From sequence record OR992645.1: a stretch of DNA of 64,000 nucleotides; one strand, given 5' to 3'. The notes below the pieces were generated by a model. It had not been told where the DNA came from, did no database searches, and worked only from the letters and a program-made list of their open reading frames with translations. The translations under genes were made by a program, and so were the position numbers. Source of the DNA: Escherichia phage EI-SP-GF. This document shows, piece after piece, positions 8,058 to 60,098 of the stretch. How positions within the stretch are numbered: position 1 is the first letter of the stretch; every line of letters starts with the position of its first letter.

Positions 8058-8834
8058 ATGCTTCCAATCCCTTTGCTAAAACTTGGTCGTCATTTCCTCG
8101 ATAAGAGGGGTGGAGTTAAGGAACTTGCTGTTCTGTCATACCCAATAGACAACAGTGACGGTACAAGCACTACAGTAGCCTATGTAAATAGCTTAGCTAT
8201 ACTTTTTGACGATGGTCAGCTTAATATTACTGGCTATAACAAGTTCGGGGAGTGTCGCACTGGGGATCGTAACCCTATAAACTACCCGAGCGAGACGGCC
8301 TGGAATGTTGATCATGTGTGGAGAGCAGACCGTGCGTTTGTGATCCGGACTTTTGATAACCAGTTTTTCTACATCGGCTGCACTGCAGGTCTTATCGGAT
8401 CCACTGCGGCAGGTGGTAACGATGTTTGCGTAAACGAGTGGACACCTCTTCCGGAACAGATTGTTAAAGGATTGCACCTTGACACCCACCCAGAGCGCCT
8501 TATTGAGGTAATGGGAGGTATTAACAACACTGTCTGGGTTATTGCAGAGGCAGAAGGTACTGGCATACTGAACCTGTATGGGTCTGGTAACAACACCTAC
8601 GGATCTTTACATGTAGATAAAAACCAGCATGCAACTCCTGTAAAGATTGGTGAAACATCAGAAAATCCTGAAACAGGCCCTTGGAAAAACCCAAGTATCA
8701 ACTGCGAGGTGCATGACAACTCTGTTATTTTCGGTGGGCCTAGAGGTTTTTGGATTGCTGGATACGACTTTCTGAGAAACAACAGTAGAAACGACCTTGT
8801 TTGGCCCCTGCTCAGATTACTCGCAACGATTTGA
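8058..8834 (+). CDS. hypothetical tail-associated protein (258 aa)
   Basis: ATG with RBS TGGAGAA; 3' end overlaps the 5' region of the next long ORF in another frame. Confidence 0.4.
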   Translation: MLPIPLLKLGRHFLDKRGGVKELAVLSYPIDNSDGTSTTVAYVNSLAILFDDGQLNITGYNKFGECRTGDRNPINYPSETAWNVDHVWRADRAFVIRTFDNQFFYIGCTAGLIGSTAAGGNDVCVNEWTPLPEQIVKGLHLDTHPERLIEVMGGINNTVWVIAEAEGTGILNLYGSGNNTYGSLHVDKNQHATPVKIGETSENPETGPWKNPSINCEVHDNSVIFGGPRGFWIAGYDFLRNNSRNDLVWPLLRLLATI

Positions 8835-8869
8835 AAGGCATTCCTGCAGATGAGGAGTGGAAAGGATTC

Positions 8870-11800
8870 ATGTGTGGTCCGAACGGGGCGATAATTGCAA
8901 CGCAGAGGATGCACAAGCCTAATGATCAGCAACTTGTTAACGTATTCTACGGGCAAGATGTCTGGGGAGATGATACATGGCGTTCCTTAAATATTACCTA
9001 CACCCATGAAGTAATAATGGCTCGTGGGTACGGAACAAGTGGCATTTTCTTCAATAATGGTACTAAGCAGTATCGCGGATTCTCTCGCAACCTGTGCAAC
9101 GATATTGGAGCACAATCTGCAAACAATAATCCTCGCGCCAATTTTATCCATTATCAAGCTCTTGCTACAGCCAAGTATGTTGAGCAACGACTGCCAGTTA
9201 GCTGGACAGAGAGTGTTTACTTCCAGGGTATTCATAGAGAAGGTTTTTTAGGGACCTTTACCGTTGTTAATGGCAAACTTTGGTGGTCAGGCATCCCAAG
9301 GGGAAGTTTTGCAGGATCTAATAACCTGTTTGGCGGCAGACTTAACAGCCAGGGGTTCACAGAGGTTCCTGAGAATTGGTATAAAAATGTCCCAGTAGAT
9401 AGTTGGGATATTGATGATATTTTTGACGTTAACGGTGTTAGCAGTGTTAGCAATATTTACATCGGTGACACGGTCAAGATGAAATTGAAGCCTCAACCAG
9501 AGGGGGCCACGTTCATTATTGACAAGATTGAACTGGTAAATGCTGCAGGCACGGTTGTTACAGATGCAAATTACCAATTCTCCACCAACTGGAACCACGG
9601 CGGGGCCAACGAGGTTGTTGTTACTCAGTATAACAGAAATGTTAACAGACGCGGTCTGTACTCTGTAAAAATAACCTATCATGACAAGCATGGCACGGGC
9701 AGAACTCACACAACAAGGACTTTGAACTGGAACACTATAGTTCCTGCGTATCCGTCTGATGGTAAATGGCACACTGTAGGCAGAAACAAACAGTTCCATG
9801 TTAACGATACTGTGTACTTTGGGCTTAACGCTGCTCAGCCAGCTCCAGAAAGCGATACAGCGTATATGGTTCGGCTGCACAGGCAAGATGCTGGGTCTGT
9901 TACCTACGATGTGACCCAAGAGATCTACAATCAGAGACGCTCCACGTATGACAATATTGTGAAAACACAAGCCTTGTGGGAGTTCAACCCTAACGGCAAA
10001 GGTGGTAAAATGTTGCAGGTTAACGAGCAAAACGGAACATCGTTAACTGTCCACGAACACCCAGACCCTTGGCCTGACCCTGGTAAACCTAACTCAGGTG
10101 CTCGCACACTGCAAGTTGTCAGTCATGATGTAGGCTATTTTGGGATACGTTGGGAGGCCACAGTAAAATATGCCGATGGGACAACAAACAACATAGGGAT
10201 TACGCTTGGTGGCACTAGTGAGAGTAACTCGCTGAAAATTGCCTACACTCCTAGAGGTATCTCTATTGACAACATGGATATAGTCCGTAACGGTTACGGA
10301 GATGTAAACATCAAAGTTACTCTTGGTGAGCATCTTGGCGGAGAAAGGATCATTATGTATGCCTTTGATCATGACCCTCGAACCAACGGAACTTATGCAA
10401 ATCAGGCCTGGAGTTACCTGATAAGTGCACCTGAGCCGAATACTAAAGAATTCTACTACGGTATGAAGCGAGATGTGTGCAAGAAAACAGGAACACACGA
10501 CTGGATTGCTATCTGTGTTAAAGATGAGAGAACAGCTTGGGATGAGCCTGTTAACCGCTGGTTCATAGGTATTCCCACCAGAAGTGATAAATACGTTGAA
10601 GAATATATTGTATGTATGGGCGGCACCAACCTCAACATGTGTTGGAACGAGGACGCAAACAAATATTCTGATTATGACTATATGAGGGACTACTCTTGTA
10701 ATCAATGGTTCAACCAATCCGGGTATGCTAATAGACAGTCAAGGGTAAACCCTGCAATCTTCACAGATACGCAGGTTTTCTTGACAAAACAGGCCAACGA
10801 GGTTCAGACCTTCAAGAACAACTATGATCCTAACAAGTGGTTCTACAACTGTTCCGGAGCAATATTCTGGGGGCCTGGTGAACTGCCTGATAGTGGTTCT
10901 TGCTTCGAGGCTGCAACCTATGGCAGTGACTATATTATGGGGCAGGTCAAGAAGTACAAGATGATTCCAGGACCTGAAACTTTAGGTAATGCTGTTGACC
11001 CGTACATAAATTTCGCAGCTATACATGCTAATATGGATGGAGAGAGATATCCGTTTGTTGTTCCGTTAACTTGGGGGTACAAACGTGTCGTGATGATTAT
11101 TAAATGCGATCTGATCGGGAAGCAAGTTCTTGCAGAAAATGGAACATCCACACACCCTTTTGAAGTTGCTCTGCACTACCAGTTTGCAGACTCACCATAT
11201 GCAGGGGATAAAAGAATATCCGACACAGACTCTAAGCGCTGTAAGAAAGTTTTACTTGGAGCCGGGTGGTGGTGGTACGAGTTTGATTTGACAGATAAGT
11301 TCACAGATGATACCAAAACTCTCACAGGTATCCGTCTGGACCTTGGTGAGAACATGCATAAAAGTGTTTGTGATGGTACCTACGGTGACCCTACGGTATA
11401 TCTAAAGTATGTTTCTCTTGAGCATCGCGAAGAGGATGTTTACGGTCCAAAACTGAGATTGTTTGGCGCATGGATTGCCAAAGACAGAGTAGGTATGGGT
11501 AAGAAGGTGAGAGGCTTCTTGATAGATGTAGGGACAGAGGACATGCTGGTTAATGCAGTATGGCCTGAATTACCCGGAACTCAGTGGAACAACTCTGCCA
11601 AATCTATAAACTGGTACAATATTCACAGAGCTATGTGGACCACTAACTGCTACTTGTGGAGAGAGCTTAACGATCAGGCCTTTGGCTTTAGTAACGGCAG
11701 AAGGATGGCGATCATTTGCTGGACAACATTGCAAAGATGTTATGACCATGACTATGAGATTGGTGGTAGGGCATGGAAAGATATCAGGGACAGAGTTATA

Positions 11801-13681
11801 TACAATTTTGCAGACGATAATGGTGGCGGGGCATATAACTTTGGCACAAGCCGACTTATCCATTTGAACGGATCCTCAGCCTACAAGAAAGAGGGTTACT
11901 CTGGGTCTATGATTGAGTGGGGTCTGGTGAAAGATGCTCGCGTATTGATGGGTCAACAACTTGCTGCTGCAATAGGACCTAGCGCAGTGCAGTCGGTTAA
12001 ACCAGCGTGGTTCGATATCCCAATATGGTCATCTGGAACACCAGGAACTGCGGCAATTAACCCTACCACCGGAGATTTGGAAATCTCTTGGGAGGACTTA
12101 AAGCAGGTCGGTGGCTGGGATAAGACTGGGTACCAGGTGCAATGGTGGAGATCTGACGGATCGTTAGCGGCTGATGAGTTTGTTAAGGACAATTTCTACA
12201 CCATGTCCTCTGCAAAAGCACAACAATTGTTTGGTCAGGCCACCCCGTCAACGATCACTATGTCCATGTGCTGTAAAGACAACAGGACGGGAGCTCTGGG
12301 ACCAAGGGTTGCTAAAGTTTTCTCAGGTATTAAATGGAATCTCCCTGTTCAAAGTGTTTCATGGAAGCAAATAGGTGATAACAAGCTGCTGGTTACTCCT
12401 GCCTGTCAGTTCAACGCAACTCTTAACGTTGATCCTGCTGTTGCGGCAAACTCAGCTAAAGCTTCTGACTTCTCTGTGTCTAACACTGCTATGGCAGATG
12501 TGAGGAAGATTGACACACTGAACGCCAGAATTACCTGTAAAAACACTTATGGCACATTCCAGATCATCAACAACTTCACAGATGCTGATTCTAAGGTAGT
12601 AAGGACAGCAAGCCAGACTATGCAGTTGGGCACTCTGGCATACTCTGCCCTGATCACTGAACAATCTCCTACTCTTCAGGGTGGGGGTGTTGGTAAGTTG
12701 ATCACAACACCTGTGTGGAAGCCAAATGAGTGGGTTGTGTTTGATTTGACTGTAGACTTCTCCAGTGACAATAACTGGACATGGGTAAGGAATTGCTTGC
12801 CACAGTTGATGGGCGGTCCAAATTCCGTTAGTGATAGCCACGACTCTACCGATCCGAGCGTGTTCCAGGTGGGGAAAACTCACCCAGAGACTGGGGAAAC
12901 GTTGCCTGACAGGAAGTATGCTTTAGTTTGCATCTCCAACGGCAAGGCAGATATAACCTTCTCGGGGATACACTCGTATAACGGCACTTACAACTTCTCT
13001 AAAAAGTACAGCCTCAAGGCAGGTAACATTATAGACGAAGTTGGTCCGTTATATAACCCAGGTAACGGTATTGGGATTGTAACTGGTATTCTTCCTATGC
13101 AGGAGCCTTCTATAACCCCAGCCAACGTGCCTGGTATCAGAAAAACTTGGGAAAGTAGCAATACCAATATTGCAACAGTGGATGCTACCACAGGACTGGT
13201 AACATTTAAGGCTACCGGGAATGTCACCATAAGGTTTGTAGTTACAGATGATGCAGGCCGCAAAACGTCTTCAACATCGTTTACTGTCAAACAGATGGCA
13301 CCTCAGTGGTTTATTTGGGAAGGAAATCCTCTTGACGGGGCTTACCCTAGACCTGCAGGAACGTCTAATATGAGGGTCTTTACCGGTCCAGTCATGGACA
13401 ATCCAACCACAACCACCAACCCTGCATTTTTTGGTGCTTACATACCTGAAATTATTGGCCTACCAAGGAACCAAATACAATTGCTTTTCGGGGCAGGCGT
13501 TGATGGTCTAGCCACTTTCGGGTACAGTGACAACATTGATGCAGCCAGAAGCTCGGGTTGGATTGGATTTAAGTTCCAGTGGAACCCTGGTGGTAGAACA
13601 TTAGGTCTTGCAAGTGTAGGTGTTATGCTGCCTGGCAACCAGCAATACCATCTCGAAGCTTATACAAACTTCCCTAGTTAA
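8870..13681 (+). CDS. large tail fibre/host-specificity protein with Big_2-like Ig domain (about 1,600 aa)
   Basis: Long ORF; first ATG at 8870 with AAAGGA RBS (frame opens at a TTG at 8801); C-terminal segment NIATVDATTGLVTFKATGNVTIRFVVTDDAG resembles bacterial Ig-like group 2; followed by a strong hairpin terminator. Confidence 0.55.
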   Translation: MCGPNGAIIATQRMHKPNDQQLVNVFYGQDVWGDDTWRSLNITYTHEVIMARGYGTSGIFFNNGTKQYRGFSRNLCNDIGAQSANNNPRANFIHYQALATAKYVEQRLPVSWTESVYFQGIHREGFLGTFTVVNGKLWWSGIPRGSFAGSNNLFGGRLNSQGFTEVPENWYKNVPVDSWDIDDIFDVNGVSSVSNIYIGDTVKMKLKPQPEGATFIIDKIELVNAAGTVVTDANYQFSTNWNHGGANEVVVTQYNRNVNRRGLYSVKITYHDKHGTGRTHTTRTLNWNTIVPAYPSDGKWHTVGRNKQFHVNDTVYFGLNAAQPAPESDTAYMVRLHRQDAGSVTYDVTQEIYNQRRSTYDNIVKTQALWEFNPNGKGGKMLQVNEQNGTSLTVHEHPDPWPDPGKPNSGARTLQVVSHDVGYFGIRWEATVKYADGTTNNIGITLGGTSESNSLKIAYTPRGISIDNMDIVRNGYGDVNIKVTLGEHLGGERIIMYAFDHDPRTNGTYANQAWSYLISAPEPNTKEFYYGMKRDVCKKTGTHDWIAICVKDERTAWDEPVNRWFIGIPTRSDKYVEEYIVCMGGTNLNMCWNEDANKYSDYDYMRDYSCNQWFNQSGYANRQSRVNPAIFTDTQVFLTKQANEVQTFKNNYDPNKWFYNCSGAIFWGPGELPDSGSCFEAATYGSDYIMGQVKKYKMIPGPETLGNAVDPYINFAAIHANMDGERYPFVVPLTWGYKRVVMIIKCDLIGKQVLAENGTSTHPFEVALHYQFADSPYAGDKRISDTDSKRCKKVLLGAGWWWYEFDLTDKFTDDTKTLTGIRLDLGENMHKSVCDGTYGDPTVYLKYVSLEHREEDVYGPKLRLFGAWIAKDRVGMGKKVRGFLIDVGTEDMLVNAVWPELPGTQWNNSAKSINWYNIHRAMWTTNCYLWRELNDQAFGFSNGRRMAIICWTTLQRCYDHDYEIGGRAWKDIRDRVIYNFADDNGGGAYNFGTSRLIHLNGSSAYKKEGYSGSMIEWGLVKDARVLMGQQLAAAIGPSAVQSVKPAWFDIPIWSSGTPGTAAINPTTGDLEISWEDLKQVGGWDKTGYQVQWWRSDGSLAADEFVKDNFYTMSSAKAQQLFGQATPSTITMSMCCKDNRTGALGPRVAKVFSGIKWNLPVQSVSWKQIGDNKLLVTPACQFNATLNVDPAVAANSAKASDFSVSNTAMADVRKIDTLNARITCKNTYGTFQIINNFTDADSKVVRTASQTMQLGTLAYSALITEQSPTLQGGGVGKLITTPVWKPNEWVVFDLTVDFSSDNNWTWVRNCLPQLMGGPNSVSDSHDSTDPSVFQVGKTHPETGETLPDRKYALVCISNGKADITFSGIHSYNGTYNFSKKYSLKAGNIIDEVGPLYNPGNGIGIVTGILPMQEPSITPANVPGIRKTWESSNTNIATVDATTGLVTFKATGNVTIRFVVTDDAGRKTSSTSFTVKQMAPQWFIWEGNPLDGAYPRPAGTSNMRVFTGPVMDNPTTTTNPAFFGAYIPEIIGLPRNQIQLLFGAGVDGLATFGYSDNIDAARSSGWIGFKFQWNPGGRTLGLASVGVMLPGNQQYHLEAYTNFPS

Positions 13682-56801: not shown

Positions 56802-57221
56802 ATGAACATTAAATCTGATAATCCGGCATATAGCTTTGATAACGCTTTTTGTCACGGTCCGGCGGCGAAAGGATTCGAAATCGATGGTAAACTAGTTATT
56901 GTCAATGTTGACGGGGAAGAGGTTGCAGTATATCCGGTGGCAGACGTTAAAAGCCGTCTACAATGCCGCATCGATGTTACCGCCTACCAGCTTGATCCGG
57001 TCCGGGTAGTTGCCCTGGTCCTGGAAGAAGAAATTAAAGCAATGCACCACAGCAACAAGTTTATTGGTGACGCTCAAGATAATATGAAGGTGTGCCGCCA
57101 TAAAGTTAATGAAGTGCTTAAAGAATATGGCTTTAAAGATCTGATGATCAAACGTGAGGAAAAATTCCGCTACCGTAACGACCTGGCAAATCGGATTTTT
57201 GAAATATACGAATCATTATAA
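56802..57221 (+). CDS. early-region protein (139 aa)
   Basis: RBS TAAGAGGTAAAAAC; last + strand gene before a strong terminator. Confidence 0.5.
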   Translation: MNIKSDNPAYSFDNAFCHGPAAKGFEIDGKLVIVNVDGEEVAVYPVADVKSRLQCRIDVTAYQLDPVRVVALVLEEEIKAMHHSNKFIGDAQDNMKVCRHKVNEVLKEYGFKDLMIKREEKFRYRNDLANRIFEIYESL

Positions 57222-57240
57222 TTTCTTAACTGAATTATCA

Positions 57241-57266
57241 AGGGGCTTAAAGGCCCCTTTCTTTTT
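57241..57266 (+). terminator. Rho-independent terminator ending the rightward early unit
   Basis: AGGGGC-TTAAA-GGCCCCT followed by TTCTTTTT. Confidence 0.6.
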
Positions 57267-57874
57267 GTCTGCTCTTCTCCTACCATAAACGGCCCTACCT
57301 GGCAAGTGGAATAATTGACTAGCCATCAATCCCACACACTGTACAAATATACATGGAAAATAACTATTGCATAATCTTTCATTGTGTGGTAGCAAGGCCA
57401 TTTTTACCCGTTTTCTCTCCCAAAAGTGCACGTAATGCAGCTATTGCACAAATTTTAACCTGATGCATATCTCCAATATCTTGTCAACAACTAAAAATCT
57501 TTATAAGTCATACACTTACACAGCATCGAAAGCGTGTTCTACGCGAAAAATCGAGTATAACTATAGCCGCCAGATCTCAGAATTCACGTACGCACGCCAT
57601 TCTATAGCCTGCAAAGTATTTATTCCAACCACAGAATAACGGAATAGTCAATACCTGCATAAAATAATTATTCGTGTAAACTGCATAACATAAATCAGCT
57701 CAGGTGTCAACATTTTTCGTAAACAGTCCGAAATTATCACGATGAGTTATCATAAACAGAGAAATCTTTAGTCGTCTAATGTTTACTGTACATTACTATA
57801 CTGACTGGAATCATTAGATGACTAAGAAAAAGATAAGAAATAATTAATAATGTAATTGTTTTACCTGTAACAAT

Positions 57875-58053
57875 AAGGCAACTATGCAAACGAATGGCAT
57901 GGCGCGACGGAGTCGCGACATAATATAAAAGCAGTAACCATCACCCCCGTGATGGTTTTTCTGCAATCTATTATTCAGATCATAGTTGCCTTGTATTTAG
58001 TTAATCATGACATAACAAGCAAGGCAACTGTAGATCTTCTAATAGTTGCCCTG
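57875..58053. repeat. alternating-orientation 12-mer repeats (ATAGTTGCCTTG family) plus a duplicated 20-mer
   Basis: ATAGTTGCC(T/C)TG at about 57983 and 58042, reverse complement at about 57875 and 58018; ATGCAAACGAATG(G/T)CATGGC at 57884 and 58142. Confidence 0.55.
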
Positions 58054-58174
58054 CTTTTATATTATGTCATAGATTATTAACTTATTAACTGTCAGCTTGT
58101 TGGCTGTTAGCTTGTCAATTGTTATCTTGTTAATTGTTTTCATGCAAACGAATGTCATGGCTTATCATCTCTGT

Positions 58175-58227
58175 GTAAACAGTTTGGGCGTAAACTATTC
58201 AGGCGTAAACAGTCTATGAGTAAACAG
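58175..58227. repeat. phased iteron array
   Basis: GTAAAC(A/T)(G/A) at 58175, 58190, 58205 and 58220, exactly 15 bp apart; further GTAAACAG copies at about 57719, 58532 and 59273 and inverted at about 58387. Confidence 0.6.
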
Positions 58228-59761
58228 TGAGATATGGAATAGTAACAGCCGTTATTGTGTCATATTGTGCTGCAGTGCGTTATGTTGTGCCATATTGTGT
58301 CACTATTATGTCAGACAAGTTTTTCCTCTCTTTGTCAAGTGCTGCATGAAAAATTTACAAACTGGTATGGTAGCATTTTTGCGGCCCTGTTTACATTCAG
58401 TTGTGTATGTATAACCCTTGTTGTGTGGGCGTTTAGACGTCTGGACGGTCAGAAGTCCGCAGGTTAATATCTAATCTATTGGCTGCTGACTATATCCCAC
58501 ACAAATAGTAAGAAATATAATTGTTATATGCGTAAACAGTAACCCATGTTATCAATCCCTGTATGTATCGCCAGTGGTGCGCATAATGGGTATTATGTTA
58601 AATTGCCCGTAATGATAACCATTCTCACAATGATAGGTATTCTCATTCACTCCCACAAGATAGATTGCAAATGTTGTGCCACTGTGTGAACGGCCTGGCC
58701 TATTAATTTGCCTCACTGCCTCGATATTTGAGAATTATTATAAAAATGAGAAGTATTCCCATTCCGTCCGCCTGGCAGCACTCCAGTCGCTACCGGCTCC
58801 TGACAGGGCAGCACTCCTGTAGGACAAGCACAAAATCGGGGCATAACTGCCTGTTCAGATATTTCTGGCTAACTCTTCAGGCCTGTGTGGGAAAAGCCAA
58901 CCTCTCCGGCGGCGGGGAGGGGTCAATTAAAAAATTTAGGTGGTGTATGAAGCGCTCTTCAGGCAAGGTGTGTATTATGGGATGAAACCCTCTTCAGGTG
59001 ATGATATTTGTGGGTGTGATATTTGCTGGAAAGCCAGATATGACGGGACTCCCGGCGGGGCAGGGGTAGTACAGGCAGGGAAAATGTGAGGATGTGGTGG
59101 GAGTAAATTGATCAGGCAGGTAGGATATGGAATATGTTACAAGTATGTTAAATATGGAGGCAGGATATTTGTAAGATTTGTGTGTAAAATCAAAGACTTA
59201 AGTGGTGTTGTGGTATTTTCTATAAATAATTCAAGTTTAATAGGTAATATTTGTCTCTATCCGCTTTGTGTGGTAAACAGATTCTAATTGAATTGGTTTA
59301 CAAGTGTATATAAAGTATACAAATTAAAGATATAAGAAACCCCCCTCCCCCTTCGGCTACCATTCACCTTTTCCTCTGACTGGTACTTAAACACTTATTC
59401 AGACTCTTCAGGTTATCACCCATATACTATATGGCAGTGACTGGTGTCCTCCGGCCCCTCTTTCGTCACCCGTCCGCTTCGCCATGCTAATGCCATAGCT
59501 AAAGGTTCGGTTGTTCACCCTGTTCACTCAGGTGTATCTCCATACCCCTTCAAACCGAAGAGAACAGAAAACCCGAATTACTCGGTAAAAGAAAAGAGAA
59601 GAACTTAATTTTATCAGGATAGGCAAGAATGTCAAGGGATGACTGCTCACTAAACAAGCAAACAGTCATGTGTGGTAGGTAAGTGATTGTGGTGGTGGAA
59701 AATTTAGTTGAAAGATGTGTTATAGTGCTTCCAGCACTTTAGCCGGGCGGCTAATTGTGTG

Positions 59762-59977
59762 TCAGTCCAGCGGTTCATCCTCCACTTCACTGAAATCAAT
59801 GTTCAGGGTCTCTTCCCAACCATCGATCTCAGCACAAGAGTGAAGTTCTTTAGGGTTTACTCCCAAAGCCTCAGCAACAGAGTCTATATTTAACACCTCT
59901 GGCAGGTATGATTCATCGAATTCAAGGTAAATCAGGCCACGAGTGTTGTCAGCTCCACCAAATATTTCTATCTTCAT
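59762..59977 (-). CDS. small acidic protein
   Basis: 71-aa ORF; its 3' end faces the large non-coding region. Confidence 0.4.
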   Translation of the reverse strand: MKIEIFGGADNTRGLIYLEFDESYLPEVLNIDSVAEALGVNPKELHSCAEIDGWEETLNIDFSEVEDEPLD

Positions 59978-60098
59978 GAAATCTCCTCTGGAAATGAGAG
60001 TGTGAACAGGGTTTTATACGTCCCAATGCACAGGAATTATGCACGTTTGCCTCTTCAGGCCATGCTTTAGCATGAGGAACCTGTGTGGGCTCGGTGCT

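Follow-up and report, generated by a model that had tools for sequence, protein, structure and literature searches.

The 2.5-kb gene-free stretch at positions 57270-59760 of Escherichia phage EI-SP-GF (record OR992645.1) is, to judge by homology, the terminal (concatemer-junction) region of a Vequintavirus genome, because it contains the counterpart of a known direct terminal repeat (DTR) and because the ends of other deposited genomes fall at the same two boundaries. All coordinates are positions in the window, the whole 64,000-nt stretch of DNA that was analyzed, which is assigned to the rV5-like myoviruses of Vequintavirus. The genome ends very probably lie in this region; the predicted 459-bp DTR (58314-58772) is surrounded there by phased repeats, inverted repeats, and two hypervariable flanks. 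In replicating head-to-tail concatemers, the region would form the joint between successive genomes. The explanation developed here, a terminal region whose repeats act as packaging and end-processing sites, is probable when taken as a whole; the specific role of the iterons as recognition sites for these processes, which is argued by analogy, is a tentative proposal that falls slightly on the doubtful side. An initial annotation of the window had offered a terminus, a protein-binding hub, or a classical iteron origin: the terminus reading is upheld by the homology of 58314-58772 to the 459-bp DTR of three published records, the hub describes the anatomy well, and the iteron origin finds no positive support.

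The predicted cut positions come from records with determined ends. Bases 1-459 of the EdH4 record are exactly its last 459 bases, and they map to window positions 58314-58772. The Gotham record annotates repeat_region features at 1-459 and 136567-137025 over the same sequence, and each of the EdH4, HdK5, and Gotham records carries the 459-bp repeat at its two ends. One of the exact boundary positions, 58314 or 58772, is also the start or end of the records of HdK5, Pr121LW, ECP2303, the bov phages, Aya, and YN3; altogether, at least nine records have a start or end exactly at one DTR boundary, at least six of them beyond EdH4, HdK5, and Gotham, and their names suggest several independent sources. 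The DTR of EI-SP-GF is 92-98% identical to that of the published Vequintavirus records, and its boundaries are the same. The left cut falls between 58313 and 58314, inside TGTCA/GACA (the slash marks the cut), and the right cut between 58772 and 58773, at ...CGTCCGCC/TGGCAGC; the sequence contexts of both cuts are conserved among relatives. As in a DTR-type terminus, the same sequence would be found at both ends of the virion DNA, the ends are, on this comparison, fixed and non-permuted, and the DTR sits in gene-free DNA, with short phased repeats beside it.

The DTR itself has already been published for close relatives, and the layout is expected for this kind of phage. Passages of the Gotham paper describe “459-bp terminal repeats” and a single specific packaging start (PMC7471380), and a passage of Korf et al. 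gives terminal redundancies of 458 bp in EdH4 and HdK5 (PMC6563267). In the rV5 genome paper, the same locus appears as a grey “non-coding” box between converging transcription units (PMC3606486). The DTRs of EdH4, HdK5, and Gotham and the box of rV5 occupy the same locus, in the same gene-free gap between converging units; the passages concerned report only the length of the repeat or the absence of open reading frames (ORFs). These passages, found by keyword search in Vequintavirus papers, do not describe the arrays beside the DTR, the two hypervariable flanks, or the invariant promoter element presented below.

The region is matched by 121 phage records at 86-96% identity, nearly all of them named Escherichia phages of the genus Vequintavirus. 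Its left boundary is an intrinsic terminator on the plus strand (57240-57259), with an 8-bp stem containing five G-C pairs followed by a T-run, which closes the plus-strand gene unit; related records annotate terminators at the equivalent place. The right boundary is at 59762, where a minus-strand 71-aa gene has its stop. Codon periodicity was tested in an alignment of 13 phages, the window and 12 related phages. No 3-nt periodicity of variable sites appears among these phages in any sub-block of the region or in any ORF of at least 39 aa (p = 0.2-0.98), in contrast to the flanking 87-aa gene (p = 4e-10). Because substitutions among relatives lack codon periodicity, the whole 2.5-kb stretch is judged to be non-coding. 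Hidden protein genes were rejected on this ground and because the ORFs annotated in some records are broken by frameshifts or stops in relatives; gp065 and gp066 of APCEc02 (a pair labelled “structural protein”) show frameshifts, stops, or variable starts. The initial annotation had seen no ORF with a credible ribosome-binding site here, a terminator to the left, and the 3' end of a minus-strand gene to the right; both boundaries hold, and no conserved protein-coding gene spanning the repeats, which it had named as grounds for refutation, was found. A search of Rfam 15 over the whole window found nothing that reached the gathering score; at a relaxed E-value, the region gave one chance-level match (E = 3.8). 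A tRNA/tmRNA scan found none.

Conservation is arranged around the two cuts. In the following, pairwise identities are means among the 13 phages. The left arm (57270-58050), which in virion DNA would lie just inside the right-end copy of the DTR, has an identity of 0.93, with 78% invariant columns and no periodicity (p = 0.3). The DTR has an identity of 0.94, and the right arm (58851-59760) one of 0.93; the inner part of the right arm (58851-59330) reaches about 0.92-0.95 (periodicity p = 0.85) and contains three CTCTTCAGG...TGTGTGG motifs and two G-rich hairpin-like elements. Conservation of the arms and the DTR equals or exceeds that of the flanking genes (0.72-0.92). The only hypervariable, indel-rich parts of the region are the two stretches directly outside the cuts. 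The left flank (58051-58313; identity 0.52, gap fraction 0.19) contains tandem repeats, the second copy of a duplicated 20-mer, the phased iterons, and a set of ~10-bp TGTGTCA-type repeats, and the right flank (58773-58850; identity 0.53, gap fraction 0.19) is G+C-rich and hairpin-capable.

The iteron array consists of four plus-strand GTAAAC(A/T)(G/A) units starting at 58175, 58190, 58205, and 58220 (58175-58227), with an exact 15-bp period, and occupies the part of the left flank that is 87-139 bp from the left cut. Further exact GTAAACAG copies are found outside the array at 57719, 58532, and 59273 on the plus strand and at 58387 on the minus strand. Seven of the eight GTAAACAG copies in the window fall inside the region; 2.3 would be expected in the whole window, and none of 100 shuffles reached eight. 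The 12-mer ATAGTTGCCYTG, with six matches in the window against 0.7 expected, occurs four times in alternating orientation at 57874-57885 (minus), 57982-57993 (plus), 58020-58031 (minus), and 58042-58053 (plus), two copies being exact and two having one mismatch. The 20-mer ATGCAAACGAATGKCATGGC is present at 57884-57903 (copy 1) and 58142-58161 (copy 2), the copies being 95% identical; a CGCGAC-GGA-GTCGCG palindrome follows at 57904-57918, and the tandem repeats of the left flank lie at 58074-58138. All of these repeats were listed in the initial annotation, and all were recovered where it placed them; the enrichment that it suggested checking is evident for both GTAAACAG and ATAGTTGCCYTG.

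Three further elements extend this inventory: a perfect 18-nt inverted repeat (57917-57934 with 58051-58068), a hairpin with a CCCC loop (57936-57957), and the GATATTTG family, whose four copies at 58723, 59003, 59018, and 59164 (58723-59171) are all on the plus strand and straddle the right cut. These are four of the five GATATTTG copies in the window, and two of them are 15 bp apart. The TGTGTCA-type repeats occupy 58253-58313. The four 12-mers, 20-mer copy 1, the palindrome, the hairpin, and the 18-nt inverted repeat together make up an invariant motif cluster at 57868-58068, every element of which is identical in 11-13 of the 13 phages.

Thirteen of 14 relatives have arrays with a 15-16-bp period at the same slot, which is bordered by 20-mer copy 2 and by the short run of TGTGTCA-type repeats. 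These arrays comprise two to at least nine units of GT(A/G)AAC(A/T)(A/G), and slightly looser forms of the core are also seen. Outside the array, single GTAAACAG copies of the region are retained in 9-12 of the 13 phages. The repeats are conserved among relatives, as the initial annotation required, insofar as the motif cluster and the array slot are kept; array copy number is variable, ranging from zero to at least nine.

More diverged relatives display the same organization. Scans of viral and metagenome contigs yielded one further clade only, referred to here as group B, which comprises IMG/VR and metagenome contigs of 121-141 kb (L009, L021, L023, L029, and others); some nine other metagenome hits matched only the ~20-nt search pattern, with nothing around it, and were treated as chance. 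Group B aligns with the window only in islands. Its layout is the same, with the 20-mer present twice and hypervariable stretches at matching places. The CCCC-loop hairpin and a perfect 17-nt inverted repeat are retained with changed sequence (GACATAATAACGCTGAG / CTCAGCGTTATTATGTC), and the covarying arms of the inverted repeat could be explained by a stem, in DNA or RNA, or by a pair of sites for a single protein. Phased GGAAACAG repeats precede the presumed cut, and the right arm contains GATATTTG and CTCTTCAGG motifs, GATATTTG being at matching places in L009. In L009, a 256-aa ORF with an HNH-like motif recognized by eye (8716-9486) is inserted in the right non-coding arm, and the arm therefore tolerates insertion at that point.

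The sister genus is represented by Klebsiella phage KPP-1 (L011), in which a 514-bp DTR lies inside the equivalent gene-free gap and 27-bp tandem units end just before it. At 2640-2690 of KPP-1, ~130-175 bp outside the DTR, there is a C6TTC5 tract as well as GTAAACAGG paired with CCTGTTTC in inverted orientation; these motifs echo the GTAAACAG core and the C6TC5 tract of the window. No promoter comparable to the minus-strand promoter of the window (see below) was found near the C-tract of KPP-1.

How these elements might act is suggested by T7 and T3. The T7 terminal repeat is said to span positions 1-160, and the terminase of T7 and T3 reportedly recognizes sequences at the concatemer junction and cuts at two fixed sites, the repeat being duplicated during packaging. 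In the T7 record, CCTAAAG repeats with a 13-bp period lie at 174-340, after the terminal repeat, and a weaker array lies ahead of the right repeat; the sigma-70 promoter A0 points leftward, toward the end, and phiOL and phiOR flank the ends (phiOR by its annotated position). The Vequintavirus region shares with T7 and T3 the fixed, non-permuted ends, the short DTR in gene-free DNA, the arrays of 7-8-bp cores with a 13-15-bp period directly outside the repeat, and a sigma-70 promoter firing toward the genome end. Passages of the rV5 genome paper also describe T7-like replisome genes, a family-A DNA polymerase and a gp4-type primase-helicase (PMC3606486). The differences are considerable. The repeat is 459 bp here and 160 bp in T7, and the gene-free region 2.5 kb rather than less than 1 kb; there is no sequence similarity, and the present virus is a 137-kb myovirus without a phage RNA polymerase. 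Genes on both sides are transcribed toward the ends, instead of inward from a single end; the terminase genes do not adjoin the region, and the arrangement is known here from sequence alone. By analogy, the Vequintavirus region appears to follow the same plan as T7 on a larger scale.

On this model, the phased GTRAACAG array, the cluster of 12-mers, 20-mer, and inverted repeats, and the GATATTTG repeats would be putative sites for the packaging machinery, that is, terminase and helper proteins; their proposed role in recognition and processing is inferred from that of the T7/T3 junction. Packaging proteins would recognize the junction, make the two cuts at their fixed positions, and permit duplication of the DTR. 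Promoters in both arms point at the DTR and may feed transcription into the junction. The right-arm promoter belongs to the minus-strand element described below. In the left arm, a weak and tentative promoter-like site read from the sequence (57481-57507, plus strand; TTGTCA-15 nt-TATAAG) points toward the terminal repeat; its 15-nt spacing is retained in the diverged L009 but is sub-optimal, and in one relative 11 nt are deleted from the site.

Several observations weigh against this packaging explanation. Phage V18 (L018, NC_041937.1) has neither an iteron array nor 20-mer copy 2, and carries a T12 run instead in the equivalent of 58100-58300. The V18 record is short (129 kb) and labelled circular; its gap could reflect either a dispensable array and natural deletion or a faulty assembly. 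The flanking genes have no recognizable domains or informative family. The ends of this phage are placed through relatives that are 92-98% identical across the DTR. We know of no established function for the analogous T7 arrays. Finally, PhageTerm output led the authors of one paper to infer headful packaging, with partial permutation, in another Vequintavirus.

Among the alternatives is an iteron-type origin, in which an initiator would bind the phased GTAAACAG repeats and melt A+T-rich DNA at 58040-58140, as at lambda and plasmid origins, the DTR merely adjoining; this is unlikely. The tandem direct repeats beside A+T-rich DNA do recall lambda ori and plasmid oriV, the repeats are both phased and enriched, and neighboring 40-bp blocks (58040-58160) contain 25-38% G+C, although much of the region is equally A+T-rich. 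Group B carries two or three perfect DnaA boxes (TGTGGATAA) within ~40 bp inside its DTR-equivalent (L009 7845-7884; L029 6430-6457; L021 11959-11998; L023 1004-1043), and the replication-associated promoters phiOL and phiOR in the junction-flanking DNA of T7 indicate that origin and terminus can coexist. However, the core is 8 bp long with a 15-bp period (~1.4 helical turns), unlike 17-22-bp units in helical phase, and the number of copies varies from none to at least nine even among close relatives. The region (57270-59760) contains no DnaA box TTATCCACA, even with one mismatch allowed, and the place of the group B boxes holds degenerate remnants only. No initiator-like gene lies nearby. GC skew, another check suggested by the initial annotation, changes sign only where transcription changes direction, and the skew analysis in the passages of the rV5 paper likewise describes the changes at the non-coding box as only transcription-linked (PMC3606486). 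The view that the phased iterons bear the classical signature of an origin thus has no positive support here.

A different kind of origin could be sought in the right arm, where a near-invariant element (59330-59640, minus strand) contains, in order, a promoter, a pyrimidine-rich leader, two hairpins, a double motif, and a G-tract. The sigma-70 promoter (59635-59608), found by a scan with a score of 11/12, has TTGACA, a 16-nt spacer, and TAAAAT preceded by TG. About 250 nt downstream lies the G5AG6 tract (59341-59352; CCCCCCTCCCCC on the plus strand), followed by A+T-rich DNA at 59270-59340 (23-35% G+C at 59200-59320). The interval 59360-59600 is 97-100% identical among the 13 phages, and in each of the 118 records containing the wider stretch 59330-59700, the best match to it has at least 97% identity. 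The double motif GTGAACAG-G-GTGAACAA is invariant and contains the iteron core. Group B has a rebuilt promoter at this position, TTGCAA-17-TG(c)TATAAT; its hairpins both keep pairing through changes on both sides, and G5-6 U A G5 stands at the position of the G-tract. A consensus fold pairs 99% of cells and has nine pairs in which both partners changed, whereas slid controls have 0-2. The nine changes all trace to one split between two clades, and the same sequences served to derive the structure. The single-sequence fold of the element is not exceptional (z = -1.5). Host mimicry was rejected, the element having no match in 5,426 E. coli genomes. From these features, 59330-59640 is a candidate non-coding RNA or primer transcript.

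As a primer, the ~250-nt transcript made by host RNA polymerase would stall or form an R-loop at G5AG6 and prime the T7-like replisome, perhaps helped by a phage Pif1-like helicase. The GTRAACAG motifs, namely the array, the scattered copies, and the double motif inside the transcript, would then bind a single protein that couples replication to end processing. Such a transcription-primed origin would be ~0.6 kb away from the right edge of the DTR, and the physical left end would be ~1.0 kb away from it. The order expected of such an origin, with the promoter first, then a G-rich tract in the RNA, then A+T-rich DNA, is indeed seen, and group B keeps it. The primary origin of T7, ColE1 RNA II, and mitochondrial LSP-CSB II share with the element a promoter, a structured transcript (here predicted, ~250 nt), G5AG6 in the RNA and non-template strand, and A+T-rich DNA; this is a resemblance only, read here from the nucleotide sequence. 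The G5AG6 tract is, we presume, similar to the mitochondrial CSB II sequence. Passages of the literature describe the G-run of CSB II as stopping transcription and forming a primer R-loop (PMC3488243), and passages of the rV5 paper list a Pif1-like helicase (PMC3606486). Taken together as one scheme, the primed origin and the single coupling protein are rather improbable.

The same element also bears on another possibility, that the region mainly encodes trans-acting non-coding RNAs for regulation or counter-defence, with the DTR simply lying between two RNA genes. The candidates would be the ~250-280-nt minus-strand transcript from the promoter at 59635 and possibly a plus-strand transcript from ~57515 to the hairpin at 57936-57957. 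The retention of a strong promoter in two clades despite sequence turnover, the near-invariance of the transcribed stretch, the paired consensus fold with its double-sided changes, and the lack of any protein-coding signal all agree with this idea. Yet no Rfam family is matched, the single-sequence fold is unexceptional, and the compensatory changes have the single origin and shared derivation already noted; moreover, the plus-strand promoter is weak and disrupted in one relative, and the iterons are left unexplained. We consider it quite unlikely that RNA genes are the main content of the region.

The arrays could instead be by-products: slippage-prone repeats might pile up beside the cuts through mutagenic end processing, strand-displacement synthesis, or recombination, only the cuts and arms being functional. 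This would account for the confinement of indel hypervariability to the two flanks, for the free drift of copy number and unit sequence, and for the absence of any array in V18. It does not readily account for the persistence of the core G(T/G)(A/G)AACAG and the 15-16-bp period in two clades whose surroundings no longer align, for the retention of isolated GTAAACAG copies in most of the phages, or for the same core forming, as GTGAACAG-G-GTGAACAA, the invariant heart of the minus-strand element, and the by-product view finds little favor with us. A headful (pac) packaging site is disfavored, the identity of the ends in records from different sources arguing against permutation, including the partial permutation proposed for the other isolate.

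Other features of the window are more loosely connected with the terminus. A composite motif, CTCTTCAGG...(C)TGTGTGG with a variable gap of ~3-30 nt, occurs at 12672-12718, 58873-58890, 58955-58975, 58990-59016, and 60051-60088, always on the plus strand. CTCTTCAGG is found seven times in the window against 0.55 expected; CCACACA is found 32 times against 10.5 expected and is spread over the whole window. One of the composite sites, at ~12.7 kb, lies at the other point where transcription converges, and the motif is retained in group B (L009 8362, 8474, 8718, and 10224). No Chi sites were found near the ends, and the FtsK-type KOPS motif GGGNAGGG is not enriched in the window (9 against 5.6 expected).

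The neighboring genes differ in their distribution. The 139-aa gene directly to the left of the region (56802-57221) is missing from 3 of the 13 close relatives; it is present, at 82-89% DNA identity, in diverged contigs whose non-coding region no longer aligns. By this distribution, it appears to behave like a mobile accessory gene beside the terminus. The 71-aa protein to the right (59762-59977, minus strand) is very acidic and is encoded at the same position in all 13 aligned relatives; group B has a similar-sized ORF there, compared by position and size alone. The idea that it acts as an iteron-binding or small-terminase protein was dropped: its only match, to the helix-turn-helix-type Terminase_5, is sub-threshold (E = 0.12), and this strongly acidic protein is confined to close relatives. 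It may not be a DNA binder. The label “DNA translocase FtsK” given in some records to the neighboring 87-aa gene was likewise set aside, Pfam giving it no support. Among the records that match the region, the chief remainder outside the named Escherichia phages is a set of 19 “UNVERIFIED” MG0656xx records named Campylobacter phage, which are 87-92% identical to it; these may be mislabelled or may derive from contaminating coliphages.

Phages of the rV5 type are widely isolated and are used in the typing, biocontrol, and therapy of pathogenic E. coli, and most of their deposited genomes have been opened at arbitrary points, without the terminal repeat. Placing the true ends would give correct genome maps and correct ends for synthetic rebooting. 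The list of conserved cis-elements defines a DNA fragment for tests of packaging signals, whether for making transducing particles or for avoiding unwanted transduction, and indicates which non-coding DNA to spare from deletion in phage engineering. The promoter-driven element is a concrete candidate for the replication origin or a regulatory RNA of the subfamily.

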